In this document: in pieces, positions 1 to 62,237 of the stretch
Position numbering within the stretch: the stretch's first letter is position 1
Layout: every line of letters begins with the position of its first letter
DNA from: a virus
Taxonomy: Duplodnaviria; Caudoviricetes
Virus record (IMG/VR): IMGVR_UViG_3300011336_000364
Coordinates: 1 to 62,237 of that record
Reading direction: 5' to 3' (one strand)
DNA: 62,237 bases
Translations under genes and position numbers: made by a program
Notes under the pieces: generated by a model
Told to the model about the DNA's origin: nothing
The model's input: only the letters and a program-made list of their open reading frames with translations
The model's database searches: none

Positions 1-182
1 TGGCGTAGCAGCTACAATCCCAACGGGTGTTTTTCGTACTGGACTTAACACACTCGCGGTAACATCAAATAGTGCTGGCTCAAGTGCAGCATTTACTGCA
101 TCTACATCTGACTTTTTCTTTGTAGACGAGCAAGTTGCTGATCAGTTAGTGGTAAATAGTGTTGCTGATGGAACAAAGGGTG
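1..182. repeat. Terminal direct repeat (circular overlap), left copy
   Basis: Matches 62056-62237 except at positions 18 and 56; indicates a complete circularly permuted genome. Confidence 0.95.
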
Positions 183-3432: not shown

Positions 3433-5120
3433 TGGCAACTTATTACGTTCGACCTGATGGTAACAATGCCAATACAGGGACTGGGCCAGCAGTTGGTCAA
3501 GCGTGGGCTACGGTTGTTTATGCTCTGGCTAATATGGCATTACCTGATGCTACAAATACCCTATACATTGCTCCCGGTACATATCGTGGTCCAGTAACGA
3601 TTTCTGTTACCCCCAGCGTCTCAAATACTTTGATTGTCGCTGGTGACCCTACAGCCGCACAGTTTACAGGTGTAACGGCTGGACGTGTCCGCATAACATC
3701 ATTTACAACAGACAACACTGGTACACCAACAATCAGCCAAACTTTGACCTGTGACAATAAGACATATTTCACGTTGCGTAATTTGCACATAGAGGGATAT
3801 CAGACAACTAACGGGACAGGTATAGCACACTTCCTAAACAGCAAAAATTACACAGTTGAGAAATGCATATTTACACATTACAGACGTGGTTCAGGGACAA
3901 GTTGTATATTTTTGACAACAACAACGACAACAGCAATCAATGCCACTTTTGATAAATGTGTAATCTTCAATGGATATGCGGGATTAAACATTGTCAGTCC
4001 AGCCACTGGGTCAACATTTGATTTAGGTGTGACTGTAAAAGATACGATTATTACACTAACAAATAACGCTGTGATTATTACAAATCCATCAGAAGGTGCT
4101 GGTGTTGGTAATGGCGTTACGTTTTACAACTGCATACTGCAAGGTGGAGCAACGCTGTATCTTCGTACAACCAACACAACCAACAAAACATTGTTCTACA
4201 ATAATGCAATTGTTGCATTTGCTGGTATTGGCTTAGATGCAACATCCAACGCTGTGACCGAAGATTACAACAGGTTTTCCTGTACGACTGATAGAAGTGG
4301 CACGATGGGTCCTAGTACAAACTCACAGTCTGGCGTGTTTGCTTCGGACTTTGACTACAGCCGTATTACTGGTTTATATGCGCTTGACTTCTGGGCTTCA
4401 TATAACGGGTCAATCGCACAGAATACAGGCACATTGTCAGGCGCACCGACTGTAGATATCTTTGGTGATGCTTGGTCAAGTACAAATCCAGATGTCGGAG
4501 CGGCAACATTCAAGATTGCATCGTCTGTTGGCGCATACAACCCAACCGAGCGCAACGCATCCACCATCACAATCGCACCCAGTAGCACATCACAAAGCAT
4601 CGAGTTATACCTAGGTGCTACAGGGCTAACCGCCTCCACCGCTGGTCTCTCAGCCCGCTACAACCGGACACGCACAGCCAGCGTATCAATCCCGCTGGTA
4701 GCCCGTACAATCGCGCAGGCGTGGACTTCTGGCGGCTTTGCGGAGGTAGACGCAGTTGAAATGCCCGGTGTCTATCGTTTAGATATTCCTAACGAAGCAG
4801 TCAATGTAGGTGCAGACGATGTTACTGTTGTCGTAAGGGGTGCGTCAGGTACTAACGGTGCAGTCATGACTATTAAACTCAGTTCAGGTGGTCTGACAGC
4901 GGCACAGACAGCAGACGCTATTCTCAATCGAAAGTTAGACAGTACAGGTGACGGCACTGACACACTCAACGAACGTACCGTTCGTAGTGCATTGCGGGCA
5001 ATGCGTAATAAAGTGTCGGTAGGAAATGGCACGATGACTGTATATAAAGAAGACGATTCTGCCACTGCGTGGACAGGCTCGTTGTCTAACACTGCTGACG
5101 TAACGGTAGACCCATCGTAA
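3432..5120 (+). CDS. Tail spike/receptor-binding protein, pectin-lyase-like beta-helix
   Basis: TYYVRPDGNNANTG...AWATV...YIAPGTY N-terminal motif followed by beta-helix-like repeats. Confidence 0.7.
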   Translation: MATYYVRPDGNNANTGTGPAVGQAWATVVYALANMALPDATNTLYIAPGTYRGPVTISVTPSVSNTLIVAGDPTAAQFTGVTAGRVRITSFTTDNTGTPTISQTLTCDNKTYFTLRNLHIEGYQTTNGTGIAHFLNSKNYTVEKCIFTHYRRGSGTSCIFLTTTTTTAINATFDKCVIFNGYAGLNIVSPATGSTFDLGVTVKDTIITLTNNAVIITNPSEGAGVGNGVTFYNCILQGGATLYLRTTNTTNKTLFYNNAIVAFAGIGLDATSNAVTEDYNRFSCTTDRSGTMGPSTNSQSGVFASDFDYSRITGLYALDFWASYNGSIAQNTGTLSGAPTVDIFGDAWSSTNPDVGAATFKIASSVGAYNPTERNASTITIAPSSTSQSIELYLGATGLTASTAGLSARYNRTRTASVSIPLVARTIAQAWTSGGFAEVDAVEMPGVYRLDIPNEAVNVGADDVTVVVRGASGTNGAVMTIKLSSGGLTAAQTADAILNRKLDSTGDGTDTLNERTVRSALRAMRNKVSVGNGTMTVYKEDDSATAWTGSLSNTADVTVDPS

Positions 5121-17700: not shown

Positions 17701-20700
17701 TACATTAATGCGCGTGATCAAAACAATCTTGAAAAGATGTACGAGGACCATTTACGCAAGCAGGATAAGCGATTACAAAATAACGAAGACCTTGAAGTTG
17801 GGCAAAAGAAGTTTGAGCAAAAGGTTGCAAAAGTACTGCGAGCCTTAAGTCAAATTGAAGACCCTGCAGATGTTCGTTATAACGATGGAACTGAGACCGG
17901 CGGTAGTAAGATTACTGCTGGTGACGTTGTGCTCATCAATAGTTCGACTGATGAACTTGGTGCTATATCTAGGCCATCCCGTATACCGGAAGGTCAATTA
18001 CGTGCTGTCGTTTTAGGAATAGATAAGGACGGAGTTCACGTTGCGTTGCAGGATCGTTTAGATGAAACAGCAGCAATAGTTCACCCTGACTTACTACGTC
18101 CTGTTCATGAGGTGTCTGGACATCAATTCCAACCTAATGCTGAGCGTTTTGAATTTGTAGACATGACAGACTTTGGGTCTTCTGGATTTGGTATACCCGG
18201 AGTACTTGACGAGAACGGTCAACCAGTAACCGCACCATTAGACACAACACCTGCTGATGCAACTCCTGCTGCGCCACTGCCTGTTGATAGCACTAACCCT
18301 GCACCTGATTTGATTTATCAACGTGCTATTGAGTCAACTACAATTGAATCTGCGCAGAATCACCTTGAGTATGCTCTCGGAGATTTAAGCGTTACACCAA
18401 ACACTATTGGTCGTGTTTACCGAGAAGCGTTTGCTAATGCAACTCCTGAAGTACGCGACAACCTTGTTCATGCCGTCTTGACATTTGATATAGATCGACC
18501 TTTAGAGATCAATGAGATTACTAGGTTGAATGCTGTTTTAGACGCAATGATTAGTTGGAATAAAGATCGTGACGTAGCAGTCAATTACACTGATGACTTT
18601 GTTTCTCATATGTCTGAAGGTATGACTCAAGCTGGACGCAAGGTTTATGCAAACACAGTCAATACTCTTGCAACTGAAGCACTGGATCGCTGGCGTCGCG
18701 GACGCCTTGAAACTCATGTGCGTAACATTGTTGGTAAGTTAGATTTACCAGCAACTGAAAAGGCTGCGATGGAGGCTGCTGTTGTTCAACGCGCAGTGCA
18801 AATGCAACACGTCAGTACTACGTTGCGTACTCGCTTGAAAAACATTGGCGTAACAGCAAATGACTTCTGGGCATCCGTCAGCTTTATGTCTCCAGCGCAA
18901 CAGGCTGAAGTAGAAGCCCAGTTAAAAGATGCTCAGCGAACTGGAACAATGCCTACGAGTCAACGGCAGTTTGCTGAAGATTTTAGGCATGTTGCTTCTC
19001 AGGTTTCTCCTTTAACTAGAGTTCGTAAAAAGTATGACGCTAAAGCTTATAGGGAAAAAGTCAACACTGAATTAGAAACGTTTGCCAAAAAGGTAAGTGG
19101 CAAAGTTATTGAAACAACTGTTGCTAAATCTGCTGACCCTAATACATCTATCACTGAATTGAAACATGCAATGGACATGATCAGTGGTGATCCTGCAGCA
19201 ATGAAAGAAATTATCAGCAATCTTGCATCTCAGGATTTGGACTCAACGGTATTTGATAAATTCTTTAGTGACGTACGTTTCCCTAATAGTAAGTTAACTC
19301 TTTCTGACGTTGCTCGCGTGTTGAAGAATAATGGCATCGACGACTTAACAGGCCTAAACAACAGCATGAAGCAAACGCTTCAAAACATTACGACAGATGT
19401 AGACATTACTCCGCAGTCGATGTACAACGACATCTTTACCCGCTTGGGAGAAACTAGTCCAGCTGCACGTAAGTATCTTGAGGATAATGAAACAGATATT
19501 CTTGATCGCCTTGAGGATGCTTATAAGAAGAATCCAGCAGACTACATATTGCAAGTTGGTACTGAGGTCGAAGGCTTTGTGTCTCACATGGCTAAAGCCG
19601 CTACCAAGGATGCAATTGCCGGTGCAGCTGAAACTGCTGCTGCTATTAACAAGGAGTACATTGCTCGCAACACGTCTCCTGAAAAGGTTAGTCTTGCTGC
19701 TAAGCGATTCCTTGAAGAAGCAGGAAGCTTGCCATCTGGTGATGGATCTGTAAAGCAAGGTGGCGTACGGTTATTGCCACAGGATGTTATTAGCCAGTTT
19801 GTAGATATGACTGCAGATAACGCAGTACAAGCCAGCACGGGTAGTCGTGTATCACAAGAGCGTTTAGCAGTTAGCCGTCAGATACTGTCCGATGCTGCTC
19901 CTTGGCTTAAGGCTTTCAACCAACGCTCCATTGCTGATCAGGTATGGACCTTACCATTACCCGGAGCACAGGCACTTATGGGTGCATCCCCTCCGAGAAG
20001 TGTAGTTGAAAAGGGCATTGACGGAGAAGTCAAAGGCAAGGGTGTTACCTACACTACTGACGAGCAAGGTAATGCACGTGTCGGATTAAATCAACAGCGT
20101 GGTTTAAATAGGGACTCTATGGTCGCTGTTATTAAAGACATGCTTACTGGTGGTCAGGAGTTTAGTAACGCAGGTTTGAATCAAATGGTTGATGACATGG
20201 CTAACACATATGCAGATATGTGGGATGTACATGCTCATGGTTATGCCGTACGTCATATGGAATATGAGTTAAAGACTGGCAACAGTGTTGATGCCAAGAA
20301 GTTCTATTCCGAGTTAATCCGATCTGCTATGGAAGCAGAAAGTGATCCCGGTATTCGTTCTGCAATGCAGGAAGTTTACGATCACGTCCAAGATACAGGC
20401 ACGTTGTTAGTTGATACAGGAACTAAAAAGTTCAGTAAGGATGCAAACTCTGTTGTCGCAGGAGCTTTCCGTGAAGTCAACAAAGAGTACGGTATCCAGT
20501 TCGGTAAATGGCTATCAACGCATCGTATGGCTCAGTTGGTGCATGACTTCTATACGACAAACGCACAAGTCAATATGTCATCTGCTGCTGTCGATCAGTT
20601 CTCTGAAGCAAGTTTAATTCGTGGGAGTTACGGAAGCCTTACTACTGGTCCAGTCATTGAGATACCGGGTTCACAACGAGCAATCGTGAACCTGATGTTA

Positions 20701-23700
20701 CACATTAACAAGGATAAGAACGCTGGTCGTAATGCACTTAGTGTTGGTCACGAGTTGTTCCATGGCGTGTATCACACGATGCCATTGCATGACAAACTGC
20801 GCATCGCAAAGAATGCATTAGCAATGTTTGGTGACAAAACAAACAACTCGCTCAGTGCTGCTTTACGTAATGTGACCACGGAATTGTCGGACTACAACGC
20901 AGAGATTGCTAAACTTAAGAAGGTGATAGCAGAAGGAACAGAAGACGAGGTTGATGAGGCACGAAAGTCATTAGCCGAGCTTGAGTATCACTACACAGTA
21001 GATATGCATGGCGACACAAATAGCTTCCTTTATACAGACCCAACCATTAATGAAGTTGTTGTTAGTTACCTGATGTCTACTGCAATGCAAGATCCACTGA
21101 TTTACAGTGATGACTCTAACATTGCTCACTATGCATCAGGCGCCATGTCTAGGCTTGGTATTGCATTGAATCAAGCCATTGGTGTAATGACCCGTGGTAA
21201 CACGGTTCAGTCAGACTGGGTTGGTGCGGAGACGGGTTCTAGTCACAGGTGGACACTTGGAGGAAAGTCGTTCTTCCATGTAGATGCTGGTGGTAATCCA
21301 ATTGCAACACCTATGATGTCTGGCTGGACATTGCGATTCACTGACCGTAGTACACGTGCTCAAAATGTCCTTCAACCATTGACTGCTACACCAGATGGAT
21401 TAGCACAGAACAACATTGGTTCTGACGCTGACCTTACTGATGTAAAGCGTGGACCGTCTATATTTGGACAGTTCGGTGGATTTGAGCATATTGATATGCC
21501 ATTCAGAGTTCACCGGTCATTGATTTTCGTGGACAGTAAAAGCGACACGTTCAACAAACTTAGGCAAAAGGGTATAAAGCCAGTTGCGACTGGCGGGAAA
21601 AATAAGAACTGGTTTGAGATGGATGTGTCAGATACGGGAATGCCTGTTAACTCGGTAGGTGGAGTACCTATTAAAGACAAGCGTCCTCAGTATGCATATG
21701 TGGTTGAAGCTGACACTGAAGGTGGCAAGCGGAAACGATACATAACGTACGGCGATGTTGTTGCTATGCAACCAAACGTTCGCGTTAGTGGAAGCAGTGG
21801 GTCTGCATCTCCAACTGTAGCAGGAATCCTATACAGTTCCTACGGTCGTGTATCAGAAGCACAACAAGTCTTGATGGGCATGGCTGATCAACGACAACAG
21901 CGCATCTTAAAGGGTTATGCGTTTATGTCTGGTCCAGCACCGGGATTAATGCCTGATGTTGCCGGTACAACATTTGGAGTTAGCAGTAAAGAAGTCAGTG
22001 ACCTGAATTCTATTATTAAAAACGGCAGTCCTGAAGATGCTCAAGAAGCCCAAGATAGATTAGACGAGATAAGAAGAGCGTATTCAGAAAGCCCTATTGC
22101 TAAAGCTATTGCGACTAGTAAAGTAAACTCTGCTGAAAATGTTCTTGCCGTAGCTGACACTACTACTGATGCAATTTCCATTGTCTATAACAATGGACTT
22201 AAGCAAGCAATAGGTCACGATGATCAAAAAGCACAAGAAGAAGTGCAGAAGAAAATAGACAATGCTAGACAAGGCATGGAGAATCTACGAACATCACTAT
22301 TCGGTATTCGTCCTGCTGACAACAGACCTATTGTCTTATCTTCTAAAAGTGAAACATCAGGAGATACAACAAATGTTCATATCTCTAGCTTCTTTGGTAA
22401 CAAGAGTGGCAATATTCTTTCTTCTGCTCCAATTTATTTAAATAAGGGTGAGGGCACAGGGGATGGAGATCCTACATCCTATACGTTATCGAGGCTTGCT
22501 CGTCGTTTAACTGAAGACTTTGACTCAGCGGATGAGTTGAATGACATTGGTGAGGCATTAGTCAAGTCACGCAGTGTTGTTGAATTTGGTCAGCAGTTAC
22601 AACGCAAGGGCTATGATGACACATTTATTTCGGATGCGTTATCAGCTATAGAATCAGCAACTGATGAATCAATGCCGACTGGTGTAGCCCTATCTATGGA
22701 TAGTGCGTTTACTATTGCTCGTGATTTTGCAAAGGGTTCCGTCAACTTTATCAGTGATGCTGACGGCGATACTGGAGCTTCAGCATTTGCACAGAACCTA
22801 CAAGATGTTGTTGAAGGTTTTGATGGAGATGATCCAGTACCACTAGCGCATAACCAACGTGCAATCATTACATTCGCTGTGCAAGCATATGCTCAATCTC
22901 AGAATAGATTAGGCAAAGCCATGAGTGAAGCTGATGTGTTGGAAGCTGCAGCAAATCCGTTTTCACAAGAGTACACAGCAATATCAGCGTTTGCCCAAGC
23001 TCTCAGTGTCGATATCAGCCACAGGGCCACAGCGTTGAAATCTAGAGGCGAGTACCAGTTAGTTGATTCAATCTACCTGTTCAGGAAATCTAGCCCATGG
23101 TACGTGCTAAGGCATGACGTAAGAGCATCCGGATCTGACACAAGCGCAGTCAGCCGTGATGCCAACTCAGCAGTGCCGTCTACGTATCACATTGCAGTTA
23201 ACAAGGCGTCTGGTGAAATAGCGTTTGTCACACAGAAGCGTGATAACAACGGAGACCTTAAGTGGGTTGCGTTAAAACAAGGGCAAGGTCGGTCGGCCTA
23301 TTCTAGTATTGACCGTTCTTCACGTAACCCTGAGAAGTCCACCAACTTTAATAAGGCTGGAGCATTATGTTACAACCCTGATAAAGAACTTACGGATAAC
23401 GTGAAGACTAAGTATGAGTCTAGGTTTAAGTATGGGATTGCTGGTATTAGAGCAGCTCTAATAAAAATACCAGAGGCGTCTGCTCAAACTTTACTAAACA
23501 CTATTGATGGTTTATCTAAGCGTAAGCCGGGTACATCAGCAGTCGTGACTGTTTCTCTTCCTCACCGCTGGGGTTATGATCCTAATAATCCATCAGTAAA
23601 ACAAACATTATCTCCAGAGCAGAAGTTTAGGGATTTCGATGAAGTCCTTAAGGCTATGACGGGACAGGCTAATTACGATGCAGCAGTGCTACGTAATGTA

Positions 23701-26055
23701 AAGATAACCATCTTAAAAGACAACACCATTGAGATTACTGATTTAGGTATTGGTGGAAATGAAGTCGTTGGCATTGAGCGACGACTTGGTGGAATGAAAC
23801 CCCACATCGGCGACACTCTACCAGTAGCGTTACCTGAAGTACACATTGCCAAGATACTTGTCCATGAGGATATGGAGAAGGGTGAGGATGGCATCCTTGC
23901 AGGTATTAGCCACGCCGCAAATCAACAAAGCCCAACACCCGGACGTGACGAGAAGTTTGGAAACTCTGTGTTCTCTGGTGGGTTTGACCCACAAGATATG
24001 TTCTCTTCTCTAGGTGTATCTAATCAAACCGTTGATGAGGCTAAGGCTAATGGGCCAGTTGGTGTTATTGATGAAGCAATGATTGACCAGCAGGGTAACA
24101 CGGAAGTGTTTAGTGACCCAACGCTGTCTTCGACTCAGCTTGTAATCGATGCTGACAAGAGCGGTATTGTCCAAGTACGTGCTGGCGACAAAATGGTTCA
24201 AGCAATAAGAGATACCTCTACGAATTCAATATCAAAAGGTGCAAAATTACTTGATGAACTCAACACTTTGACTCGTGTACTTGCATTAGGTCGTGATATT
24301 GGTGTTGCTTCTAACCAAGCGTGGTTGATTGCAAATCCTATGTCGGACCTCATGTATATGATCAAGCATAGGAAGGTTGGATCTATGGCATGGGCAATGA
24401 GTGCGCTGCCAGCAATACTGCCAAATACGCCAGACATGAACGTCGTGTTTAGGGCTGGGTCAGATCCGTTTGCTCAACATGGTGATACATCGTTTGGTGA
24501 CAAGTACGTACACTTACAGATGGCTAAGTTGATAGAGCAAGTGCCTGATCTATCTATGGACAGGCTTGCAAGTTATGGACTTGGAGTTGAATACTTAGAT
24601 CACTACAGGACTTACCAAGCAGCACTTCAGGATAATCCAAACATTAGACCTGAAGACATTCCATTGCATATGCGTATGAGTGATTACTATGGGTCAGGAG
24701 AATTTGCTCGCAAGATAATACCTATGCAGAGTGCAATTGAAAGAGCAAACGTTTTGTATAAAGACCTTGCAATCATTTCGGCATTCCAGCAGATGTATCA
24801 AGCTACGGAGAACGTCATACCTCCAGCTAAGTTAAACATGACGGCTGACAACTATCGCGAGATGTTGCGCCGTGAATATGCTGAAGCAATTAACTTTATG
24901 ACTGGTAATGATGGTGGCTCACCATCAGAGAATGCAAAGATTGCTGGACTTCAAAGTGTTATGGCAAAGGCTGTAATCTCTACCAAGTACGCCAAGTCTA
25001 GGTTAGTGCTTAGTCCGTTAGGTCCTGTGTACACACTTGGTAAACATGCAGTCAACAATGTCGCAGAAACTTTTGGCTTTGATAAGATTGCCAACACTAA
25101 CATTGAAGATAAGGTCTGGTTAAGTCAAGACAAAGGTGGCTGGAGTTCTGAGGTTAAGTGGTATGTAACCAAGAAGTGGCTTTCGGCATACCTTTCATCT
25201 AAAGCAACACAAGTTATTACTAGATCTCCAAAGATTCTTGCTGCATTGGCAGCTGCATCTGGTGGGGTGCAGTTAAAGGCACAAGTCTGGGAAGAAATGT
25301 ACGACGAGTTGCTTCTAGATGATTCCGGAATGATGAAGGTAGACATACTTGGTACAACGTACATGCAAACCCTACCGGGTGCGCAAGGTAGAGCTATACG
25401 ACAGGCAGGACGAGCATCTACCAAATGGCGTACTCATTCCATACCGGAAAACATTGAGTACTGGGTAAAGCAGTTTGGATTAAATATGCTTGCTCCATTT
25501 GCAGCTAATATCAAAGAAGGTGTTACTGGGCGTGACTTTACTGGCAAGCCAGCATTTGAAAGTCATTTAGGTTATGAGGAATATGTCAAGCAGTTAAAGT
25601 CTGACCCTGACCTTCGCCTGTATGGAGTACCTGACGGTGCTAAATACATACCGGGGTACTTAACCATTGAGGAAAACATCAAGAAGGCCATGCCAGATAA
25701 GATGACACGTTTTGCTATTGATGCATTGAACAACGTCAATACAAAGGACATGCTTTCTGATATGGAATATATGTCTACCCGTAACTTTGACTCTGGTATG
25801 GGAACGGAGCTTTCTTCGGAAGACATCTCAAGGCAGAACATCATTCCGTTCATCATGAACTTCTTTGGTTCTGGAGCAACTCAGTTTGATGATGACTACC
25901 AGAAATGGTTACGTCAACGAGTTGGTGGCAGTGCTAGATACAAGCAAGCTGAAGAGGAACTGAAATCACTCAGTCCAAAGTCTGCCGCTGATGTTGTCGG
26001 AGAATCTGGAGTACGTGGTTTATTCAATCCAGCAGGTAGTGGTATCAAGGAATAA
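14776..26055 (+). CDS. Giant (3759 aa) internal virion/large polyvalent protein with zincin-like HExxH motif
   Basis: Uninterrupted ORF; VGHELFHG at 20749-20763; last ejection-module position. Confidence 0.65.
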   Translation: MAKPLTAAEKKKLQLWLSRFDAATKKVTKTNPDYASIITKDTRAVLSAARENGLLTNDAYQKRLSAYTETIKETSRRPVIDTDKVVVKFKNPVTGKESALNRSSFIDKEGNYNWERDLNDVISERQAKSQAIGGQLKKGPTPAYTAYDDVKLVPETIGPSLRGQGEGLVKGWEGALGSLGAVANPVKDGMMRAAGPIVRGFAATAGGPGSYNNPNLAVQMDLAKKVTPEQYGEAYFRPIEDENEAVGFQAAQLAALGVPSMAADIATGGLFAGLRRAGAVKGIAPAAFNAAELTTGLAPGVTEVLTKNPLWNVIGNPIGASQEALNNKALRERAQSQSASAVELSGPSNTLLNIAGLALGVSLNTAGKVVKGADINEIKQGVRGVRQSIRQGLDAARAIGDGGKITPLSRAKIWSAGLGDTPVAQDYLKPMAMNALQSAVPLGVQATAAAINPYDEKTKKGYEMPSAYDVIDTVAQVAFSSPHKDSILGKFNNLFDTTEVGTGAILEVTQKSNALRKELQKESTLIDYLVRSSGLSYDQALAYVSQSRKEQFPDRPDVRSLQDIEDMTEARRIAQGMNPALDRVILGRVLDAGKYKKESVTAPLPPMQGPKERFNVGRAIKGVGETIADRLGEQPKDATLSQFGYAPVAGRQDADLAVHDLITGPLQGFSTVTREWTAALKSRLAMQESLKKPLTKTELEKTADNKRRPLPYTSMMVTTPDGLRRIVYDDSLRRIGLTDDVDYPTNRQLTPQAITTDVNNLTPDNLRKGLPTLNSRDNIDIRWSHRGSDNKVFDYHIRGFDADGPVVTKSLSGGPGLEDSTYRVGRRELNETLPESSKEKIIAQLEAINREFGGSDIGDNNGAIYSSTDFSTVDRAQFPHQVAVGGGKVIPARLINKTNEFYSYQIPTGGVIRVRKESMGSTKNTDTLMTPIDTRMERVAGIVYADNLTTQLANVKDREFIDVQLGDDVTSTRRVYINARDQNNLEKMYEDHLRKQDKRLQNNEDLEVGQKKFEQKVAKVLRALSQIEDPADVRYNDGTETGGSKITAGDVVLINSSTDELGAISRPSRIPEGQLRAVVLGIDKDGVHVALQDRLDETAAIVHPDLLRPVHEVSGHQFQPNAERFEFVDMTDFGSSGFGIPGVLDENGQPVTAPLDTTPADATPAAPLPVDSTNPAPDLIYQRAIESTTIESAQNHLEYALGDLSVTPNTIGRVYREAFANATPEVRDNLVHAVLTFDIDRPLEINEITRLNAVLDAMISWNKDRDVAVNYTDDFVSHMSEGMTQAGRKVYANTVNTLATEALDRWRRGRLETHVRNIVGKLDLPATEKAAMEAAVVQRAVQMQHVSTTLRTRLKNIGVTANDFWASVSFMSPAQQAEVEAQLKDAQRTGTMPTSQRQFAEDFRHVASQVSPLTRVRKKYDAKAYREKVNTELETFAKKVSGKVIETTVAKSADPNTSITELKHAMDMISGDPAAMKEIISNLASQDLDSTVFDKFFSDVRFPNSKLTLSDVARVLKNNGIDDLTGLNNSMKQTLQNITTDVDITPQSMYNDIFTRLGETSPAARKYLEDNETDILDRLEDAYKKNPADYILQVGTEVEGFVSHMAKAATKDAIAGAAETAAAINKEYIARNTSPEKVSLAAKRFLEEAGSLPSGDGSVKQGGVRLLPQDVISQFVDMTADNAVQASTGSRVSQERLAVSRQILSDAAPWLKAFNQRSIADQVWTLPLPGAQALMGASPPRSVVEKGIDGEVKGKGVTYTTDEQGNARVGLNQQRGLNRDSMVAVIKDMLTGGQEFSNAGLNQMVDDMANTYADMWDVHAHGYAVRHMEYELKTGNSVDAKKFYSELIRSAMEAESDPGIRSAMQEVYDHVQDTGTLLVDTGTKKFSKDANSVVAGAFREVNKEYGIQFGKWLSTHRMAQLVHDFYTTNAQVNMSSAAVDQFSEASLIRGSYGSLTTGPVIEIPGSQRAIVNLMLHINKDKNAGRNALSVGHELFHGVYHTMPLHDKLRIAKNALAMFGDKTNNSLSAALRNVTTELSDYNAEIAKLKKVIAEGTEDEVDEARKSLAELEYHYTVDMHGDTNSFLYTDPTINEVVVSYLMSTAMQDPLIYSDDSNIAHYASGAMSRLGIALNQAIGVMTRGNTVQSDWVGAETGSSHRWTLGGKSFFHVDAGGNPIATPMMSGWTLRFTDRSTRAQNVLQPLTATPDGLAQNNIGSDADLTDVKRGPSIFGQFGGFEHIDMPFRVHRSLIFVDSKSDTFNKLRQKGIKPVATGGKNKNWFEMDVSDTGMPVNSVGGVPIKDKRPQYAYVVEADTEGGKRKRYITYGDVVAMQPNVRVSGSSGSASPTVAGILYSSYGRVSEAQQVLMGMADQRQQRILKGYAFMSGPAPGLMPDVAGTTFGVSSKEVSDLNSIIKNGSPEDAQEAQDRLDEIRRAYSESPIAKAIATSKVNSAENVLAVADTTTDAISIVYNNGLKQAIGHDDQKAQEEVQKKIDNARQGMENLRTSLFGIRPADNRPIVLSSKSETSGDTTNVHISSFFGNKSGNILSSAPIYLNKGEGTGDGDPTSYTLSRLARRLTEDFDSADELNDIGEALVKSRSVVEFGQQLQRKGYDDTFISDALSAIESATDESMPTGVALSMDSAFTIARDFAKGSVNFISDADGDTGASAFAQNLQDVVEGFDGDDPVPLAHNQRAIITFAVQAYAQSQNRLGKAMSEADVLEAAANPFSQEYTAISAFAQALSVDISHRATALKSRGEYQLVDSIYLFRKSSPWYVLRHDVRASGSDTSAVSRDANSAVPSTYHIAVNKASGEIAFVTQKRDNNGDLKWVALKQGQGRSAYSSIDRSSRNPEKSTNFNKAGALCYNPDKELTDNVKTKYESRFKYGIAGIRAALIKIPEASAQTLLNTIDGLSKRKPGTSAVVTVSLPHRWGYDPNNPSVKQTLSPEQKFRDFDEVLKAMTGQANYDAAVLRNVKITILKDNTIEITDLGIGGNEVVGIERRLGGMKPHIGDTLPVALPEVHIAKILVHEDMEKGEDGILAGISHAANQQSPTPGRDEKFGNSVFSGGFDPQDMFSSLGVSNQTVDEAKANGPVGVIDEAMIDQQGNTEVFSDPTLSSTQLVIDADKSGIVQVRAGDKMVQAIRDTSTNSISKGAKLLDELNTLTRVLALGRDIGVASNQAWLIANPMSDLMYMIKHRKVGSMAWAMSALPAILPNTPDMNVVFRAGSDPFAQHGDTSFGDKYVHLQMAKLIEQVPDLSMDRLASYGLGVEYLDHYRTYQAALQDNPNIRPEDIPLHMRMSDYYGSGEFARKIIPMQSAIERANVLYKDLAIISAFQQMYQATENVIPPAKLNMTADNYREMLRREYAEAINFMTGNDGGSPSENAKIAGLQSVMAKAVISTKYAKSRLVLSPLGPVYTLGKHAVNNVAETFGFDKIANTNIEDKVWLSQDKGGWSSEVKWYVTKKWLSAYLSSKATQVITRSPKILAALAAASGGVQLKAQVWEEMYDELLLDDSGMMKVDILGTTYMQTLPGAQGRAIRQAGRASTKWRTHSIPENIEYWVKQFGLNMLAPFAANIKEGVTGRDFTGKPAFESHLGYEEYVKQLKSDPDLRLYGVPDGAKYIPGYLTIEENIKKAMPDKMTRFAIDALNNVNTKDMLSDMEYMSTRNFDSGMGTELSSEDISRQNIIPFIMNFFGSGATQFDDDYQKWLRQRVGGSARYKQAEEELKSLSPKSAADVVGESGVRGLFNPAGSGIKE

Positions 26056-32831: not shown

Positions 32832-33223
32832 CTTGGTGTAATTTTTTTATTGTGACGTTGTTGGCAGAACCCACACTTCCAAGGTGGAGTCCATTCACCA
32901 GACAGGAATGCGTCAACTACATCTATAACGAATGCTTTGTCAGTGCCATCCCATTCACGTGTGTTTTCTGTCTTGACTGTGCGCCATATAATTTGTCCAT
33001 CAACGTCATACAGTGGATCAATAGTACGAATCATTTCTGCGTATGCTGTTTCATTGTTCCAGTCATCAGGCATTTTGAATGACACAACTTTTAATTTAAA
33101 TTTAGGCCACGTCAATGTAACGATATGCCCGTATCCGATTGTAGGTTCAAGTAATTTCCAGCCACCTCGATAGTCACTTGTAATAGACATTGCATTAATA
33201 ATGCTTGCCAAATCTTCTAGCAT
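32825..33223 (-). CDS. Hypothetical protein
   Basis: AAGGAG RBS; downstream of promoter motif at 33300. Confidence 0.65.
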   Translation of the reverse strand: MLEDLASIINAMSITSDYRGGWKLLEPTIGYGHIVTLTWPKFKLKVVSFKMPDDWNNETAYAEMIRTIDPLYDVDGQIIWRTVKTENTREWDGTDKAFVIDVVDAFLSGEWTPPWKCGFCQQRHNKKITPRW

Positions 33224-33299
33224 AATTCTCCTTGTGTTAAAAACTTGTGGAGCCTGAAATGCAGCTCAGACTCCACAAGGTGTGGTTAGATCCCCGTAT

Positions 33300-33314
33300 A
33301 TTATACCGTAGGTA
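33300..33314 (-). promoter_or_regulatory. Phage promoter motif TACCTACGGTATAAT
   Basis: Exact motif with consensus -10 TATAAT; points into the replication module. Confidence 0.75.
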
Positions 33315-37970: not shown

Positions 37971-37994
37971 TGTGTTACCTTTGTGTTGTGTAGT

Positions 37995-38024
37995 GTGCGT
38001 TGTTAGTGAGACGCACCCCTCACT
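37995..38024 (-). ncRNA. Putative H-type pseudoknot, copy 1
   Basis: GTGAG-GG-GTGCGT-CTCAC-TAACA-ACGCAC; repeated at 38543-38571. Confidence 0.55.
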
Positions 38025-38030
38025 TACCGA

Positions 38031-38525: not shown

Positions 38526-38542
38526 GATTGTGTTTCTTTTCT

Positions 38543-38571
38543 ATGCGTTGTTGGTGAGACGCACCCCTCAC
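38543..38571 (-). ncRNA. Putative H-type pseudoknot, copy 2
   Basis: GTGAG-GG-GTGCGT-CTCAC-CAACA-ACGCAT. Confidence 0.55.
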
Positions 38572-38579
38572 ATCAAACA

Positions 38580-40429: not shown

Positions 40430-40479
40430 TGTGTTGTCCTTCCAATCATATGTTCATATATGATTGTTATTCAATATAT

Positions 40480-40548
40480 GAGGGGGGTAGAATCTGACCC
40501 CTCCCCCCTAGTAAAAATTGGAGGGGTATAAAATTTGACCCCTCCCCT
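40480..40548. repeat. Two palindromic iteron-like repeats GGGGT-N8/10-ACCCCTCCCC
   Basis: Intergenic; next to an AT-rich inverted repeat at 40443-40466. Confidence 0.55.
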
Positions 40549-40551
40549 TAC

Positions 40552-41532: not shown

Positions 41533-41569
41533 TGTGTTACCTTTCCAAACATCTCCTCAAGGGAGAAAG

Positions 41570-41610
41570 AGTAGCCGGGGAATCGAACCCCGGCTTAGCA
41601 CCAGCCTACT
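41570..41610 (-). ncRNA. Anticodon-less tRNA-like (elbow mimic) element A
   Basis: AGTAG-GCTGGTGCTAAG-CCGGGG-TTCGATT-CCCCGG-CTACT. Confidence 0.6.
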
Positions 41611-42026: not shown

Positions 42027-42639
42027 TCGTGACCTCATCGTCATATGTAAAGTCCATTCCTTTTTCAATGGATTCTGCAATCCTTTGACTCCACTCGGCA
42101 CGTTCTTTCTTTGCTGCCTCAATTGTTTTATGGAACTGGTGTTCCGTATACCAGAAAGTCATTGATGGCTTCTCTGGATTTGAGACCATGCTACCGATCT
42201 GGTAGTCGTTAGCCTCTGTCACACCCCAAGGAGAGGTCACGTAACAGCAAGCTGTGATTTCCCATTCGTAGTACTCAACGTCGTCGCGTCGGTATGTGTG
42301 CTTACTACGCAGAGCAAGGTTATGCAACTCGTCGTTGCGTGGTTTGTCGCAGTTGTAAATGACGGTCGTGCTATCACTGAACTCAGTGTTGCCTTTGTGG
42401 TACCACCAGAATGCGTCTGCAATAAGCCCTTCTTCAAGGGCAACAACGCCAGCACGGAAGCACTTGCGACCAACAGTGTCGCTGTTGTGGTCAACGAACT
42501 CTTTGTCGTTGATGAGCTGATTGACAAATGTTCTCGCGTACAGGGCACGTTGCAGTGCATTAACGAGTGCTTCTGCCATTACTTCTTGTTGCTTCTCATC
42601 ACCGGCAAGCCGGTTGAATCTGAAGATGTTGTTATACAT
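42016..42639 (-). CDS. Hypothetical early protein
   Basis: AAGGAGG RBS. Confidence 0.65.
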   Translation of the reverse strand: MYNNIFRFNRLAGDEKQQEVMAEALVNALQRALYARTFVNQLINDKEFVDHNSDTVGRKCFRAGVVALEEGLIADAFWWYHKGNTEFSDSTTVIYNCDKPRNDELHNLALRSKHTYRRDDVEYYEWEITACCYVTSPWGVTEANDYQIGSMVSNPEKPSMTFWYTEHQFHKTIEAAKKERAEWSQRIAESIEKGMDFTYDDEVTNED

Positions 42640-42644
42640 CTTTC

Positions 42645-42737
42645 CTCCTTGTGTTTAGCAGTAGGTTGCCAGCCGTGTTCCTCTTGCGAGGTAAAGGTAG
42701 CCGGGGCATTCAACCCCGGCAGTCAGGCTTGAACTGA
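42645..42737 (-). ncRNA. Structured intergenic leader, copy 1 (T-loop-like hairpins, GCAA hairpin, ACCTAC-loop hairpin)
   Basis: 42645-42694 is homologous to 43174-43223 with compensatory changes; hairpin 42697-42720 has the same stem as 41571-41594. Confidence 0.6.
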
Positions 42738-42923
42738 TTACCGTGAGACTTCAGCGTTTACGATAGCGTCCTGAGACTTCTCAAGCAGCTCTTGTGCTAC
42801 ATGAGCACGGAACTCTGCCTCTTGTGCCTTACTCTGCTGATACATCAGCATGAAACACAGCACCAATGCAACTGTCCACCCGATGATGTGTGACTTAACA
42901 AACATCTGTTCTACTTGCTTCAT
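42738..42923 (-). CDS. Small membrane-anchored early protein
   Basis: Start reassigned to ATG 42923 (GGGAG RBS); one TM segment. Confidence 0.55.
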   Translation of the reverse strand: MKQVEQMFVKSHIIGWTVALVLCFMLMYQQSKAQEAEFRAHVAQELLEKSQDAIVNAEVSR

Positions 42924-42925
42924 AA

Positions 42926-43168
42926 TTATCTCCCTGCAATCTGGCCAATGGCCTTGCGAATAGCGCACTGGTCGTGCTCACTGGCATTGTAGAGGCTCGC
43001 CAGATCGTTAATCTGCCTCTTAAGATGGTCGATGTTGTTGTAGTACAACTTGACCGTGATGCCCTTCTTGGTCTTGGTGTGCATGACGGTGGTCATGAGA
43101 CCGAGTCCGTCTTTCTCCATGTCGATGTCGAAATTTCCGGCTGTGATTGAGCCGCGTTGGATGACCAT
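42926..43168 (-). CDS. Hypothetical early protein
   Basis: Start reassigned to ATG 43168 after AAGGAG. Confidence 0.6.
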   Translation of the reverse strand: MVIQRGSITAGNFDIDMEKDGLGLMTTVMHTKTKKGITVKLYYNNIDHLKRQINDLASLYNASEHDQCAIRKAIGQIAGR

Positions 43169-43173
43169 AATGT

Positions 43174-43267
43174 CTCCTTGTGTTAGTGGTAGGTCACTAC
43201 CCGTGTTCCCCTTGTGAGGGTAATGGACGTCAGGGAATCGAACCCTGATACAAACACCAGCCGTCCA
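43174..43267 (-). ncRNA. Anticodon-less tRNA-like element B (43224-43267) plus structured leader copy 2 (43174-43223)
   Basis: TGGACG-GCTGGTGTTTGTA-TCAGGG-TTCGATT-CCCTGA-CGTCCA followed by the leader homologous to 42645-42694. Confidence 0.65.
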
Positions 43268-43313
43268 GAGATGCATTTTGCCGGAGATGCATCAAACTCC
43301 CTGATTATGATAC

Positions 43314-43667: not shown

Positions 43668-43748
43668 AATAACTAACCCTTTGTGTTGTGTATAGGACGG
43701 GTATACACGCCCGTGATAGCAGTTTATTCACATGCTTAGGTGGATACA

Positions 43749-43815
43749 CCCGCGTCGGAGTCGAACCGATACCCAAAACGTAACGTAACTGGGCACTATC
43801 CTAGATTAGCGCGGG
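43749..43815 (-). ncRNA. Degenerate tRNA-like RNA with a 12-nt anticodon loop
   Basis: CCCGCG/CGCGGG acceptor, CTA-ATCTAGGA-TAG D-like arm, CCCAG/TTGGG arm, TCGG-TTCGACT-CCGA T arm. Confidence 0.55.
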
Positions 43816-44223
43816 GCAACTTCGTACCAGATGATTCCGATACTAGGTAAAGGGGATAGTTTTGATATTGGAACCGCTACAACGGGTTCAAAGCATGGCA
43901 AAACGGTTAGTAAACTTCGTAACCGTGATAGGTTTTAGGTGATAGTTTGGCGGGTTTTGACGTTAGAATCGAATAAAGCAAAACAAAACCCGTTGCATAG
44001 CCTGTAGTAGACTAAAACAACGGGTTAGAACTGCTAGCGTGTAGCGGTAAAGTTTGGAGCCGCTAACAGCGGACTGGTTAAAGGTACAACACCCACATAC
44101 AAAGGAGTGTAAGGAGGAGGTACACCCCCGGCACACCCCACCCCCACATGGCAAGCCCCTGCCCCCCTGCAAAGGAGTGTTTGGGACTCCGACGGATATA
44201 TTCCCTCTTCTCTATTATCTATT

Positions 44224-44260
44224 TCTCCCAACGGAGAACATCATCTCCCCACGGAGAACA
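44224..44260. repeat. Tandem 17-bp operator-like repeats TCTCCCMACGGAGAACA
   Basis: Copies at 44224-44240 and 44244-44260, each containing a TCTCC-N4-GGAGA palindrome. Confidence 0.6.
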
Positions 44261-44301
44261 GCTTGTTACGCTGCCTCAATATGGATATACTTACGGTATG
44301 T

Positions 44302-45721: not shown

Positions 45722-45736
45722 TACCTACGGTACAAT
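45722..45736 (+). promoter_or_regulatory. Phage promoter motif TACCTACGGTACAAT
   Basis: 9 nt upstream of tRNA-Leu. Confidence 0.7.
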
Positions 45737-45745
45737 AGTACGTAA

Positions 45746-45826
45746 GCCTCGGTGGTGGAATGGTAGACACGGCGGACTTAAAATCCGCTGTCGCAAGACG
45801 TACGGGTTCGAGTCCCGTCTGAGGTA
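45746..45826 (+). tRNA. tRNA-Leu(TAA)
   Basis: GCCTCGG/CTGAGGT acceptor, GGAATGGTAGACAC D arm, GCGGA-CTTAAAA-TCCGC, long variable arm, GGG-TTCGAGT-CCC. Confidence 0.93.
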
Positions 45827-45837
45827 TAGGAGAAAAG

Positions 45838-46479
45838 ATGGCAGCCACACTCAAGTATATTCAACCGGACGCAGAGCAGTTTATGATTCACCTTGCACGT
45901 GTTTCATCGACTAACCAAGAGAACCCAGAGTACTCGGCGTTGCTTACGTACTGCATCAAACATGGCCATTGGAGTGTGTTTGAAATGGTCGATGTGACCA
46001 TGGAAATCTATACATCTAGGGCTATTTCTGCGCAAATCTTAAGACATAGGAGCTTCCATTTTCAAGAGTTTAGTCAACGATATGCAAACCCAAGCAAGAT
46101 TGAACTAGACCTTCCTGTGATGCGACGCAAAGGTTCTACTAACCGGCAGAGTAGCCTTATGTTTGACGACCCTGAAACACAATACGAAATGGACAACAAA
46201 GCACTGGCTCCAGTACTGGTTGCTATTCGCGCTTATGATGATCTTATTAAGTGCGGTGTGGCCCTTGAATCAGCTCGTATGGTGCTACCTCTGTGCGTTG
46301 GCACACGACTATACATGAAGGGTACAGTTCGTGACTGGCTGCATTACTGCCGTGTACGAATGGATATTCATACGCAACAGGAACACCGCGAAATTGCCTC
46401 TGATTGTTGGAATGTACTCAAGGAAGTACTGCCTGTGACAACATCTGCGTTTGAGGCGCATTATATGGAGAGTAAATAA
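45838..46479 (+). CDS. thyX: Flavin-dependent thymidylate synthase
   Basis: HGHWSVFE, RHRSFHFQEFSQRY (RHRx7S), ESARMVLP, TQQEHREIA. Confidence 0.95.
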   Translation: MAATLKYIQPDAEQFMIHLARVSSTNQENPEYSALLTYCIKHGHWSVFEMVDVTMEIYTSRAISAQILRHRSFHFQEFSQRYANPSKIELDLPVMRRKGSTNRQSSLMFDDPETQYEMDNKALAPVLVAIRAYDDLIKCGVALESARMVLPLCVGTRLYMKGTVRDWLHYCRVRMDIHTQQEHREIASDCWNVLKEVLPVTTSAFEAHYMESK

Positions 46480-57794: not shown

Positions 57795-60037
57795 GTATGC
57801 CACCCATGGATCCAAATGCCCCTCAAGGCGCACAAATGCCAATTGATCCACGCATTATTCAGCGTATGTTACCAATGGCAATGCGACCGAATAACGTGCG
57901 TGTAACGGCGTTTAAGAAGCCTTCTAACGCTGGCACGGTTGGATCGCAGCCATTAAAGAATCCATCACTTACAGATCCTGATAACTTAAAGATTGATCAA
58001 GAAAAGAAAGACTGGAAAGTTTCTCCTAAAGATCAACCTGATGAATCACGTCGAATTAACGACTTTGTAAAAACACAGTTTGACACTGCTTATCGCGCAC
58101 GTTCCGAGATGGAAATTGAATGGGCAATGGCAACTGCGTTTTTTGAGGGACGTCAATGGTTTAGGATTAATAGCCAGACACGTAACTTGGTGCAGTTACA
58201 AAATCCAAATGAACCAAACCGTTATATGACGGTTAATAAGATCAGGCCGTTAATTGACGGTGTCGTTGGCAAACTTACTCAATGTAGTCCAGATGCAGAT
58301 GCTGTCCCGTTAAGTGAGAGCCAACAAGATATTGCTGCTGCTGATGAAGCTAACTTTTTAGTTAGTCATTACAACCGCAAATTTAAACGTGAGACACAGT
58401 TAAAAGAACGTGTTCGCTGGGCGTGTGTAACTGGCACAAGCTTTGTAAAAATATTTTGGGATTCCCGCAAGACGCAGATTGTTCCTCAGTTTGCATCCGA
58501 CGGACAGCAAGTAATTGGACACAAAGAACTTGCTGTAGGTGACGTTGTAGAGCAGATCATCCCATGCTTCGATGTTTATATGGATCCATCAGCTAAGCGT
58601 GACGATGAAGTGCGCTGGATGATTCATGCCATGATTAAACCTTTGTCATGGTTTGTAGACTCATATGGCGATATAGGCAAGCTGGTTAATGCTGATGCCG
58701 TAATGGGTCACAGTAGTGGTTATATCGACAGTTACTTAGAAGGTGCTAATGGTAGTGGTAAAGGATGGGTTCCACCATCTGTTGCCCGTATGAATAACTA
58801 CGACACACGTAAGCAGTCCGCTGTTGTTTACGAGTACTGGGAAAAACCAACTCAGCTTTATCCTGATGGTCGTTACATTGTGTGTTCTAACAACACGTTG
58901 CTTTATGCTGGAGTATGGCCTTACAAAAAGAAGGACTCGTTTCCGTTTATTCCATTGCGCTGGCAGCCTCGTGCAGGAACGCCATTTGGATACAGCCTTG
59001 GCTTTGACTTGTGCGGTTTACAGCAATCCTATAATCGTATCTATTCAAGGTTAATGGAGCAGTTTGAAAGCCAGAAAGACTACATCTTAGTAGAGCGCCT
59101 AAGCAACGTTGGCGCAGATGCATACAACAACACATCAGACGAGATTGAAGACAAGAACCGTATTTACCGTAAGGTTTATTACAACCGGGGTTCACAGCCA
59201 CCATCAATTCAGCGAGCACCGGGAGTTGGTGGAGATTTATTCCCACTGCTTCAGATGTTTGAAAAAGACATGATGGACATTGCTGGTTTGCACGATGTAA
59301 GCCAAGGCATGGCTAGTGCTGGCACTCCTGCGGAATCCGTTCGGTTATTGCAACGTGCCGACAACACGCAGCATAGTTTCATTAGGGCTGACATTGAAAT
59401 TAGTTCAGCAATGATCAAGGAATGGGAAGTGTCCCTTGTTGAGCAATTTGCCATTGTTCCATTTGTTGGAAACATGGAAGGCGGAATGCTTCCATCAGAC
59501 CAGATTAAACAAGGTGTCATGCGATTTGATGCTATCCGTAATGGTGGTCAGTTCCGGATTGTTTACATACCGGGATCATCAATGGAAGACGGACCAGAAC
59601 AGAAATTACAGAAGTATGCTGCCTTAAGGCAAATGGGTATCTTTGGCGATCCAGCTGATCCAGCAACTAATAAGTTGTTCGTCGAACTGGTAATGATGCC
59701 TGAGACATCTAAGATCCTAAAGCACCTTGATGAGCAAGCGCAGAAAATGGCGCAGATGCAACAAGAACAAGCAGCAATGATGCAGCAACAAATGGCTGCT
59801 CAGCAACAACCACCACCAGCTCCGGGGTCTGACTTTAATCCAGAAGTTGAACAAGCCAAGGCCGAGATCGAGCTGAATAAAAAGGTGGGAGAAATTAAAG
59901 CAAAACTAGAAGCCGATATTGCACTTGAAACGGCTAAGGCTGGTATTGCTAGTTCAGTGGAAGATGACAAAGTCTATTCCGCGCAAACCGCTAGTTTGAC
60001 ATCTAGCGGACCAATGAAAAATGGAGATAATATGTAA
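57791..60037 (+). CDS. Portal protein (P22-like)
   Basis: FFEGRQW, VNKIRPLID, DIAGLHDVSQG, Gln-rich C-terminal barrel; between TerL and scaffold. Confidence 0.85.
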   Translation: MSMPPMDPNAPQGAQMPIDPRIIQRMLPMAMRPNNVRVTAFKKPSNAGTVGSQPLKNPSLTDPDNLKIDQEKKDWKVSPKDQPDESRRINDFVKTQFDTAYRARSEMEIEWAMATAFFEGRQWFRINSQTRNLVQLQNPNEPNRYMTVNKIRPLIDGVVGKLTQCSPDADAVPLSESQQDIAAADEANFLVSHYNRKFKRETQLKERVRWACVTGTSFVKIFWDSRKTQIVPQFASDGQQVIGHKELAVGDVVEQIIPCFDVYMDPSAKRDDEVRWMIHAMIKPLSWFVDSYGDIGKLVNADAVMGHSSGYIDSYLEGANGSGKGWVPPSVARMNNYDTRKQSAVVYEYWEKPTQLYPDGRYIVCSNNTLLYAGVWPYKKKDSFPFIPLRWQPRAGTPFGYSLGFDLCGLQQSYNRIYSRLMEQFESQKDYILVERLSNVGADAYNNTSDEIEDKNRIYRKVYYNRGSQPPSIQRAPGVGGDLFPLLQMFEKDMMDIAGLHDVSQGMASAGTPAESVRLLQRADNTQHSFIRADIEISSAMIKEWEVSLVEQFAIVPFVGNMEGGMLPSDQIKQGVMRFDAIRNGGQFRIVYIPGSSMEDGPEQKLQKYAALRQMGIFGDPADPATNKLFVELVMMPETSKILKHLDEQAQKMAQMQQEQAAMMQQQMAAQQQPPPAPGSDFNPEVEQAKAEIELNKKVGEIKAKLEADIALETAKAGIASSVEDDKVYSAQTASLTSSGPMKNGDNM

Positions 60038-61993: not shown

Positions 61994-62237
61994 ATGGCAC
62001 GAGATTTTAAATCGTCGGTTATCTTCCCTACACAAACGGGTAGCGTAACAGCATTTGGCGTAGCAGCTACAAACCCAACGGGTGTTTTTCGTACTGGACT
62101 TAACACACTCTCGGTAACATCAAATAGTGCTGGCTCAAGTGCAGCATTTACTGCATCTACATCTGACTTTTTCTTTGTAGACGAGCAAGTTGCTGATCAG
62201 TTAGTGGTAAATAGTGTTGCTGATGGAACAAAGGGTG
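61994..62237 (+). CDS. 5' part of putative capsid cement/decoration protein (continues across the origin to 943)
   Basis: AAGGAG RBS, ATG at 61994 (MARDFKSSVIFP...), in frame with ORF 149-943 through the overlap; directly follows the MCP gene. Confidence 0.8.
   Translation, partial: MARDFKSSVIFPTQTGSVTAFGVAATNPTGVFRTGLNTLSVTSNSAGSSAAFTASTSDFFFVDEQVADQLVVNSVADGTKG
62056..62237. repeat. Terminal direct repeat (circular overlap), right copy
   Basis: Matches 1-182 with two mismatches. Confidence 0.95.

Follow-up and report, generated by a model that had tools for sequence, protein, structure and literature searches.

The question raised by this locus is why two early genes of a phage are preceded by copies of the same structured leader of 50 nucleotides (nt). 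The locus lies on the minus strand of IMG/VR virus record IMGVR_UViG_3300011336_000364, which was analysed over its whole length of 62,237 nt (the window) and is complete, with a CheckV completeness estimate of 99 %. A preliminary description of this DNA had reported the two copies, and both their sequences and their coordinates proved exact on the minus strand. Each forms the 5' untranslated region (UTR) of an ORFan open reading frame (ORF), as follows.

42645-42694, minus strand: leader copy A, 50 nt, in the 5' UTR of an ORFan of 207 amino acids (aa) with its ATG at 42639
43174-43223, minus strand: leader copy B, 50 nt, in the 5' UTR of an 80-aa ORFan with its ATG at 43168

Each leader was found to be the 3' half of a larger intergenic cassette, consisting of a tRNA-like acceptor/T-arm minihelix, a small hairpin and a ribosome-binding site (RBS). 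The reading that we tentatively prefer, as a serious possibility that still falls somewhat short of probable, is that this cassette is a portable 5' UTR of early mRNAs which would be cut at the minihelix by tRNA-processing enzymes. The leader itself is a lineage-specific variant of a cassette family that we did not find described in print.

Within the window the leader is restricted to these two sites. The sequence GGAACACGG occurs twice, once per copy, and a covariance model (R1) built from both copies and two orthologues gave only copies A and B as significant matches over 62 kb (E 6e-28 and 7.5e-27). The next matches were non-significant (E 0.074 at 59974-60034 and E 0.079 at 33221-33261), and for the second of these the orthologue in contig L037 agreed only at the RBS block AACACAAGGAGA. 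Both leaders lie 6-7 nt upstream of an ATG, after AAGGAG, and the Shine-Dalgarno (SD) sequence was predicted by folding to be open. As had been noted before, each copy follows a T-loop-type hairpin (family D6) and precedes an RBS; the AACACAAGGAG block is a general RBS context of the phage and precedes other genes too. The translations of the two downstream ORFans showed no evident similarity on reading, with no pairwise comparison run. A coding or upstream-ORF reading of the leader was rejected: open frames exist, but the differences between A and B show no third-position bias and the copies fall out of frame at a 1-nt indel.

Orthologues of the leader were present in three related contigs, with two leader copies per genome. 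Leader B was identical in G001, in G002/G003 and in contigs of runs X16 and X18, and the orthologue of copy A had four differences, none of them within a hairpin. The AACACGG spacer, which had been called fixed, is the same in copies A and B but reads AAUACGG in the G003 orthologue of copy A (GGAATACGG). In G004-G008 no leader was detected by model R1, the best match having an E value of 2.79. No further leader variant came from pattern scans, with different parts of the leader left free, over IMG/VR and one collection of metagenomes. Related loci made up 3 of 16, 5 of 11 (from three related contigs) and 4 of 4 (from three related contigs) of the yields, with 0 of 3 in metagenome contigs among the later scans and 4 of 18 in the last; the remaining loci were chance matches without minihelix or RBS context.

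The standard cassette of the phage group consists of the minihelix, UU(U), a hairpin (CCCC-AAYA-GGGG or UCUCC-N5-GGAGA), (U)UUGUUUGA, AGGAG and the ATG. Copies A and B keep the minihelix, a UUA linker and the small hairpin (hairpin 1), with the U-rich spacer UUUGUUUGA replaced by a 29-nt insert (AACACGG, hairpin 2, AACAC). Of 16 instances, taken from the window, four relatives and two unrelated phage contigs, 14 had the start of a small hairpin within 0-5 nt of the end of the minihelix. The recurrence of minihelix, hairpin 1 and RBS together bears out the suggestion that the leader forms one module with the tRNA mimics. In the minihelix, an acceptor-like stem of 4-5 bp is joined by a linker of 10-18 nt to a T-type stem of 6-7 bp, after which come the 3' acceptor strand and one more base; the window phage has three to four copies. 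These and the associated structures are listed below.

42695-42742, minus strand: minihelix A, with a GGUA/UACC acceptor-like stem, a 7-bp T-type stem and the deviant loop UUGAAUG, starting inside the stop codon of the 61-aa gene
43224-43266, minus strand: minihelix B, GGACG/CGUCC plus UCAGGG-UUCGAUU-CCCUGA
41569-41610, minus strand: minihelix C, of the third cassette copy, before the 90-aa gene
43270-43293, minus strand: a further hairpin of 7 bp, GAUGCAU...AUGCAUC, with which spacer B begins on its 5' side; in G005 it stands alone directly before an RBS
43745-43817, minus strand: element D, a cloverleaf-like tRNA mimic of about 73 nt that precedes the operon's first gene (117 aa, 43667-43314)

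The leader of minihelix C (41533-41568) has the hairpin UCUCC-CUUGA-GGAGA and is without hairpin 2. Several compensatory changes between the window and G001/G003 were observed in the long arm and T-type stem of element D, whose T loop is not kept in relatives (UUCGACU versus AGCGUUA).

The minihelix covaries. An alignment of seven sequences had 97.4 % of its cells paired and two-sided changes at 6 of 11 pairs, giving a covariation score reached by 0 of 500 shuffles, a control that overstates significance since the rows are paralogues and orthologues. The canonical T loop UUCGAUU was present in five of the seven rows. The T-arm motif GGTTCRANYCC, set in a non-canonical tRNA-like fold, was found in copies B and C (GGTTCGATTCC), with copy A deviant (GGTTGAATGCC). 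The stems keep their pairing on the minus strand through G.U intermediates (43246 A>G in the T stem; GGACG to GGGCG), which would be A.C on the other strand. This supports action of the cassette as sense (minus-strand) RNA rather than duplex DNA, in line with the cis-acting RNA element originally proposed. ARAGORN and Rfam called only tRNA-Asn and tRNA-Leu in the window and no minihelix, and a relaxed Rfam scan gave no tRNA (RF00005) match to any of them; minihelix B had a sub-threshold match to RF01684 (19.4 bits against a gathering score of 42.5; E 1.8). No Rfam family covers the minihelices, and full-text literature searches returned no paper on such minihelix cassettes in phages.

The two small hairpins of the leader compare between copies as follows.

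42680-42691, minus strand: hairpin 1 of A, CCUC-GCAA-GAGG, a local version of the small hairpin found after the minihelix across the cassette family
43208-43220, minus strand: hairpin 1 of B, in two registers, CCCU-CACA-AGGG (of minimum free energy) or CCUC-ACAA-GGGG
42656-42671, minus strand: hairpin 2 of A, UGGCA-ACCUAC-UGCUA, pair probability about 0.75
43184-43199, minus strand: hairpin 2 of B, UAGUG-ACCUAC-CACUA, pair probability about 0.21, with the competitor GGUAG-UGAC-CUACC

The three distinct sequences (A, its orthologue and B, which are the rows of the hairpin 2 covariation) all have complete pairing in hairpin 1 (4 bp) and hairpin 2 (5 bp), and RNAalifold recovers both. Hairpin 1 is kept, as the preliminary description had stated, with a single change from U-A to U.G; in an alignment of nine cassettes by MAFFT its 4-nt-loop and 5-nt-loop forms fell in different registers, and per-sequence folds were used. 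In hairpin 2 three pairs change and five of five stay paired, two changing on both sides (C-G to U-A and A-U to G-C) and one on a single side (G.U to A-U). The compensatory changes that drew attention to this leader are present in that pairing is kept, but the argument comes from one pair of paralogues. G001, G002/G003 and the X16 and X18 contigs, which carry the leader, add no variation in hairpin 2. By our enumeration the chance of keeping all of its pairs, given which positions changed, was about 0.066. In copy B the competing hairpin was predicted at -5.7 kcal/mol versus -4.1 for the shared hairpin 2.

In all probability hairpin 2 exists as a second stem, though a weak one, which would tune stability or ribosome access. 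Because G004 and the complete relative G005 are without such a leader, we conclude that it is a recent and dispensable 29-nt addition limited to this lineage. The hairpin 2 region of leader A (42672-42656, minus strand) reads GGCTGG-CAACCTAC-TGCTAA and the linker of minihelix C (41606-41595, minus strand) reads GGCTGG-TGCTAA; the GGTAG/CTACC of the competing hairpin in leader B has the sequence of the acceptor stem of the C-type minihelix. A second minihelix that has since decayed may have been the source of the insert. The sequence GUAGG, a candidate kissing or pseudoknot partner of ACCUAC, was found only in minihelix C, about 1 kb away.

Minihelices were not confined to the window. Model R2 gave one copy in G004, four in G005, one in G006, eight in G007 (some of which may be true tRNAs) and one in G008, and the complete 63-kb genome of G005 has four cassettes within 1.4 kb. 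A scan with the T arm of copy C led to a contig from a bacterial bin (L041), in which the same architecture follows a stop codon and precedes an RBS, and for which ARAGORN again made no call. A second, weaker match in this contig (E 0.041) reads as the same architecture; the elements lie at 1305-1344 and 3659-3700. A scan with GGTTCGATTCCNNGGCTACC gave 29 new loci, at which ARAGORN called tRNA-Tyr (19), tRNA-Gln (one) or nothing (nine). Six of the nine uncalled loci were clearly minihelices of this architecture and L050 partly so; L053 and L061 were not. To the eye, the minihelices look like tRNA-Tyr without the region from the D stem to the variable region, which suggests such an origin. The tRNA-Tyr-like pattern, GGTAG...TGGTG/TGGTT...T arm...CTACC, was seen at further sites in L080 (1067-2436), L076 and L075. 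The same element occurs in at least three unrelated phage-like contigs, its intergenic position having been checked in L041 only.

The cassette is constrained in sequence and mobile. The block 43157-43249, from the T arm of B to codon 4, showed no difference in G001 or G003, and the adjacent 5' spacer and coding flanks were 79-86 % identical (14-21 % of sites differ). In G001, 42767-41613, comprising cassette A and two genes, is swapped for other genes, and homology returns exactly at minihelix C; the mosaic breakpoints, 42768 and 41612, are at cassette edges. Cassette A of G003 is flanked by diverged genes, from which it stands out as an island (42599-42818) with 86 % identity. The X16 and X18 contigs match 42918-43302 (cassette B and the 80-aa gene) and are unlike the window sequence on either side, and X18 also breaks at 42752. 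As breakpoints sit at cassette edges in G001, X16 and X18, these comparisons indicate that the cassette travels with the ORFan that it precedes.

Under the preferred reading, a polycistronic early transcript would be cut into units at the minihelix, which would act as a signal for host tRNA-end enzymes, with RNase Z cutting after the discriminator base and/or RNase P at the 5' side. The functional order would be stop codon, tRNA-Tyr-like minihelix, 3-4 U/A-rich nt, GC-rich hairpin 1, spacer and strong RBS. The leader would then be the start of the downstream mRNA, with 'TTACC...' as its first bases and hairpin 1, three nt from the new 5' end, as a protective cap; a 5' stem-loop protects mRNA from decay that depends on the 5' end. 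Throughout the phage group, UU or AU (U/A-rich) comes after the discriminator of every minihelix. Such a UU or AU favours RNase Z on CCA-less precursors, and the tRNA-Asn and tRNA-Leu of the window have no encoded CCA. Junctions of tRNA and mRNA are already part of expression in this phage, because its tRNA-Leu adjoins the SD of thyX, 2 nt after the discriminator. Plain termination is argued against, because a canonical T loop would be superfluous for a terminator and because canonical terminators stand at the end of the operon.

40430-40551, minus strand: two tandem GC-rich hairpins, each followed by a U run, canonical terminators closing the first leftward transcription unit

The closest precedent is offered by plant mitochondrial t-elements, which were found with the same GGTTCRANYCC motif and direct RNase Z/P cuts that make mRNA ends (PMC1920247).

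Several observations weigh against this reading. A U run follows the minihelix in several cassettes (copy C was flagged), so that a leaky terminator or attenuation is possible. The acceptor-like stems are only 4-5 bp long and the T loop of minihelix A is deviant. The identity of block B could stem from recent recombination rather than selection. The folding energies of the leader and of the whole spacer were no better than those of shuffled sequences (z -0.65 to -1.33), and changes between A and B fell on 14 of 36 paired versus 11 of 49 unpaired positions (Fisher P=0.15). For hairpin 2, which has its one pair of paralogues, 49 of 500 column shuffles equalled the score, and in copy B it is the predicted minority fold. 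No transcript ends were seen in the sole RNA run (X20, as contigs), which covers only 42862-43094 and none of the spacers.

The behaviour of hairpin 2 could alternatively be that of an operator, its fixed ACCUAC loop being bound by an early RNA-binding protein of the phage that would regulate translation of both ORFans, in the manner of T4 gp43 or a coat protein. The loop and the flanking single strands are kept while the stem arms change with pairing retained, hairpin 2 ends 4-5 nt before the SD, within the 30S footprint, and a leader shared by two unrelated genes would suit a common regulator. The target of T4 gp43 is an upstream hairpin whose loop is conserved, together with a sequence overlapping the RBS (PMC3014915). 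We nevertheless think an operator unlikely: the constancy of the loop comes from two independent sequences only, the competing fold of copy B buries part of ACCUAC, no RNA-binding domain or protein was recognised among the 38 scanned ORFs (each counted once), and the complete relative G005 lacks the leader.

It is similarly doubtful that hairpin 2 has no function of its own and that the cassette is kept as a DNA linker for homologous recombination shuffling ORFans, the pairs having arisen by chance or in one template-switch (quasipalindrome) event. This explanation draws on the mosaic breakpoints at cassette edges and on the homology islands confined to cassettes. The enumerated chance of kept pairs (about 0.07), the 49 of 500 shuffles that were as good and the non-significant Fisher test of paired versus unpaired positions also agree with it. 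PeSLs (promoter-early stem-loops) are conserved intergenic cassettes of about 100 bp that mediate ORFan shuffling (PMC2839356). However, a recombination linker needs identity rather than kept pairing, and the minihelix covaries strongly, with substitutions passing through G.U on the sense strand only.

A third possibility starts from ACCTAC itself. The preliminary description had taken this hexamer for the core of a phage promoter motif, and it is indeed the 5' part of the promoter-like ACCTACGGTAYAAT, which is present four times.

45723-45736, plus strand: promoter-like motif ACCTACGGTAYAAT, followed by tRNA-Leu and, 2 nt after it, the thyX SD
46769, plus strand: ACCTACGGTAYAAT motif
48033, plus strand: ACCTACGGTAYAAT motif
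33300-33313, minus strand, starting at 33313: ACCTACGGTAYAAT motif

All four motifs stand before nucleotide-metabolism and replication genes, and they are conserved in relatives (L035 at 11245, L037 at 13417). The leader could be a DNA-level element, either a weak internal promoter or a site for a factor that reads ACCTAC in the ACCTACGGTAYAAT promoters, but we regard this as very unlikely. ACCTAC is common to the four conserved promoter-like motifs and in copy A the following TGCTAAACA resembles an extended -10; against this, no TATAAT follows ACCTAC, the -7 T is missing in both copies, and a start about 7 nt downstream would remove a perfect SD. The promoter scan gave no promoter-like site within 42640-42737 or 43169-43313, the arms of hairpin 2 covary rather than keep their sequence, and the hexamer is common, with 36 copies in the window versus 23.1 +/- 4.6 expected. 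Five closing pairs around ACCTAC were found at 3 of the 36 sites, namely both leaders and one promoter (through G.T pairs). The sharing of ACCTAC by leader loop and promoter may be a coincidence. A bolder combination, to which we give very little credence, is that the ACCUAC hairpin is an RNA operator of a factor that also reads ACCTAC in the four ACCTACGGTAYAAT promoters. The switch to middle transcription would in this way be coupled to translational control of the two early ORFans. The setting would be a 't-element' system of phages, with minihelices derived from tRNA-Tyr and present in several unrelated lineages directing host RNase P/Z to punctuate early polycistronic mRNA.

Antitermination, at a nut (boxA/boxB) or put type of site for terminator read-through, was among the functions first proposed and is the one we least expect to hold. 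Two small hairpins with conserved single-stranded blocks, duplicated in an early operon, do recall such sites, and putL and putR of HK022 are reportedly paralogues that keep their stems. The fit is poor: two tandem canonical terminators close the operon within which the module is placed and, compared with lambda nut and HK022 put, the leader abuts the SD directly and comes after rather than before the T-arm hairpin. The boxA consensus is missing from both copies on reading, no antitermination-type Rfam match was obtained at either threshold (the presence of nut/put models in Rfam was not checked), and G005 has cassettes and no such leader. Two further candidates were dropped, an N4-type hairpin promoter read by a virion RNA polymerase, prompted by a 3759-aa ORF (14776-26055, plus strand) that had no Pfam, PHROG or PDB sequence match, no polymerase being found among 20 further ORFs either, and a sigma-54 promoter in copy A (TGGCA...TGC), which is one base short in spacing and for which copy B has no GG/GC.

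Genes recognised in the window are those for a P22-like portal, large terminase, DnaB helicase, ThyX, dUTPase and Mu Gam. The 20 further ORFs scanned beyond the 3759-aa ORF included no recognisable RNA polymerase, sigma factor or RNase, and BLAST against GenBank phages gave no nucleotide relative, no match to the region or the G007 element and one weak protein match. A run of leftward genes extends from about 43667 down to 26842. Its first unit consists of eight small ORFans (117, 80, 61, 207, 144, 90, 75 and 161 aa), none of which had a match above the curated cut-off.

Other features of the early region were observed. A second repeated leader (GTGAGGGGTGCGTCTCACYAACAACGCA), unrelated to the 50-nt leader, stands before two other early ORFans (37971-38030 and 38526-38579, minus strand), and one copy is 95.7 % identical in G001 despite differing flanking genes. 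Between the divergent early units lie about 630 nt of non-coding sequence (43668-44300) that are conserved above the flanking genes. Motifs resembling AACCCGTT/AACGGGTT recur there, next to a G-rich tract and a tandem pair of UCUCC-N4-GGAGA hairpins (44224-44258); this may be an origin or operator region. In G001/G003 one ACCTACGGTAYAAT copy is inside an inverted repeat without mismatches, CCTACGG-TATAAT-CCGTAGG, as would suit an operator bound by a dimeric factor. At 45723-45850 (plus strand), the promoter-like ACCTACGGTACAAT precedes the tRNA-Leu and the thyX SD lies 2 nt past the discriminator, so that the thyX mRNA would carry the tRNA as its 5' leader. A direct repeat of 182 nt at the ends of the window (1-182 and 62056-62237, 99 % identical) sits within an open frame running off the left end. 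For this reason the genome may be circularly permuted and the repeat an overlap left by assembly, not a genuine terminal repeat.

Taken alone, the leader is a small lineage-specific 5' UTR variant, and its setting in a truncated-tRNA cassette is of more interest. Should tRNA-processing enzymes be recruited by the minihelices, phages would have an equivalent of the tRNA punctuation of mitochondria, and ORFans that are shuffled would find a portable expression signal already in place. The contribution of an added hairpin to the cassette is represented by a natural pair, copies A and B.

Among known systems, the RNase III sites between T7 early genes are structured intercistronic signals at which early polycistronic mRNA is cut into stable units; they are long hairpins with an internal loop, unlike the tRNA mimics described here. 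The mascRNA/MALAT1 family (RF01684) is likewise a tRNA-like processing signal within a longer transcript, but it is eukaryotic, and minihelix B, with its match below threshold, is not a member. The T4 gene 43 operator is a short phage mRNA hairpin that has a conserved loop and lies close before the SD (PMC3014915). Hairpin 2 fits this geometry, its loop being constant over two independent copies, one of them with a competing fold. It is autogenous, serving one gene and its own product, whereas here two unrelated ORFans share the leader. Plant mitochondrial t-elements are non-canonical tRNA-like folds with GGTTCRANYCC beside mRNA ends that are proposed or shown to direct RNase Z/P cuts creating 5' and 3' ends of mRNAs (PMC1920247). 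They differ in being organellar, with ends mapped by experiment, the phage elements being known from sequence; the phage minihelices also lack D and anticodon arms and are followed by the small hairpin in nearly all instances.

A parallel in phages is with the PeSLs of T4-type phages. These are described as repeated composite cassettes of about 100 nt that run from a stop codon to the next SD/ATG in ORFan-rich early regions, that have a GGGG...CCCC stem-loop and that sit at insertion, deletion and replacement breakpoints (PMC2839356, PMC4122927). The cassettes of the present phage likewise have a stem-loop and SD between stop codon and ATG in an early region rich in ORFans, are associated with breakpoints between close relatives and, like a PeSL, travel with the gene downstream. 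A PeSL carries a strong sigma-70 promoter, and the phage cassette is without one by promoter scan. Finally, the stem-loop of a PeSL is a plain terminator hairpin. Its place is taken in the present cassettes by an acceptor/T-arm mimic that covaries and has a canonical T loop, and a second hairpin comes after it.

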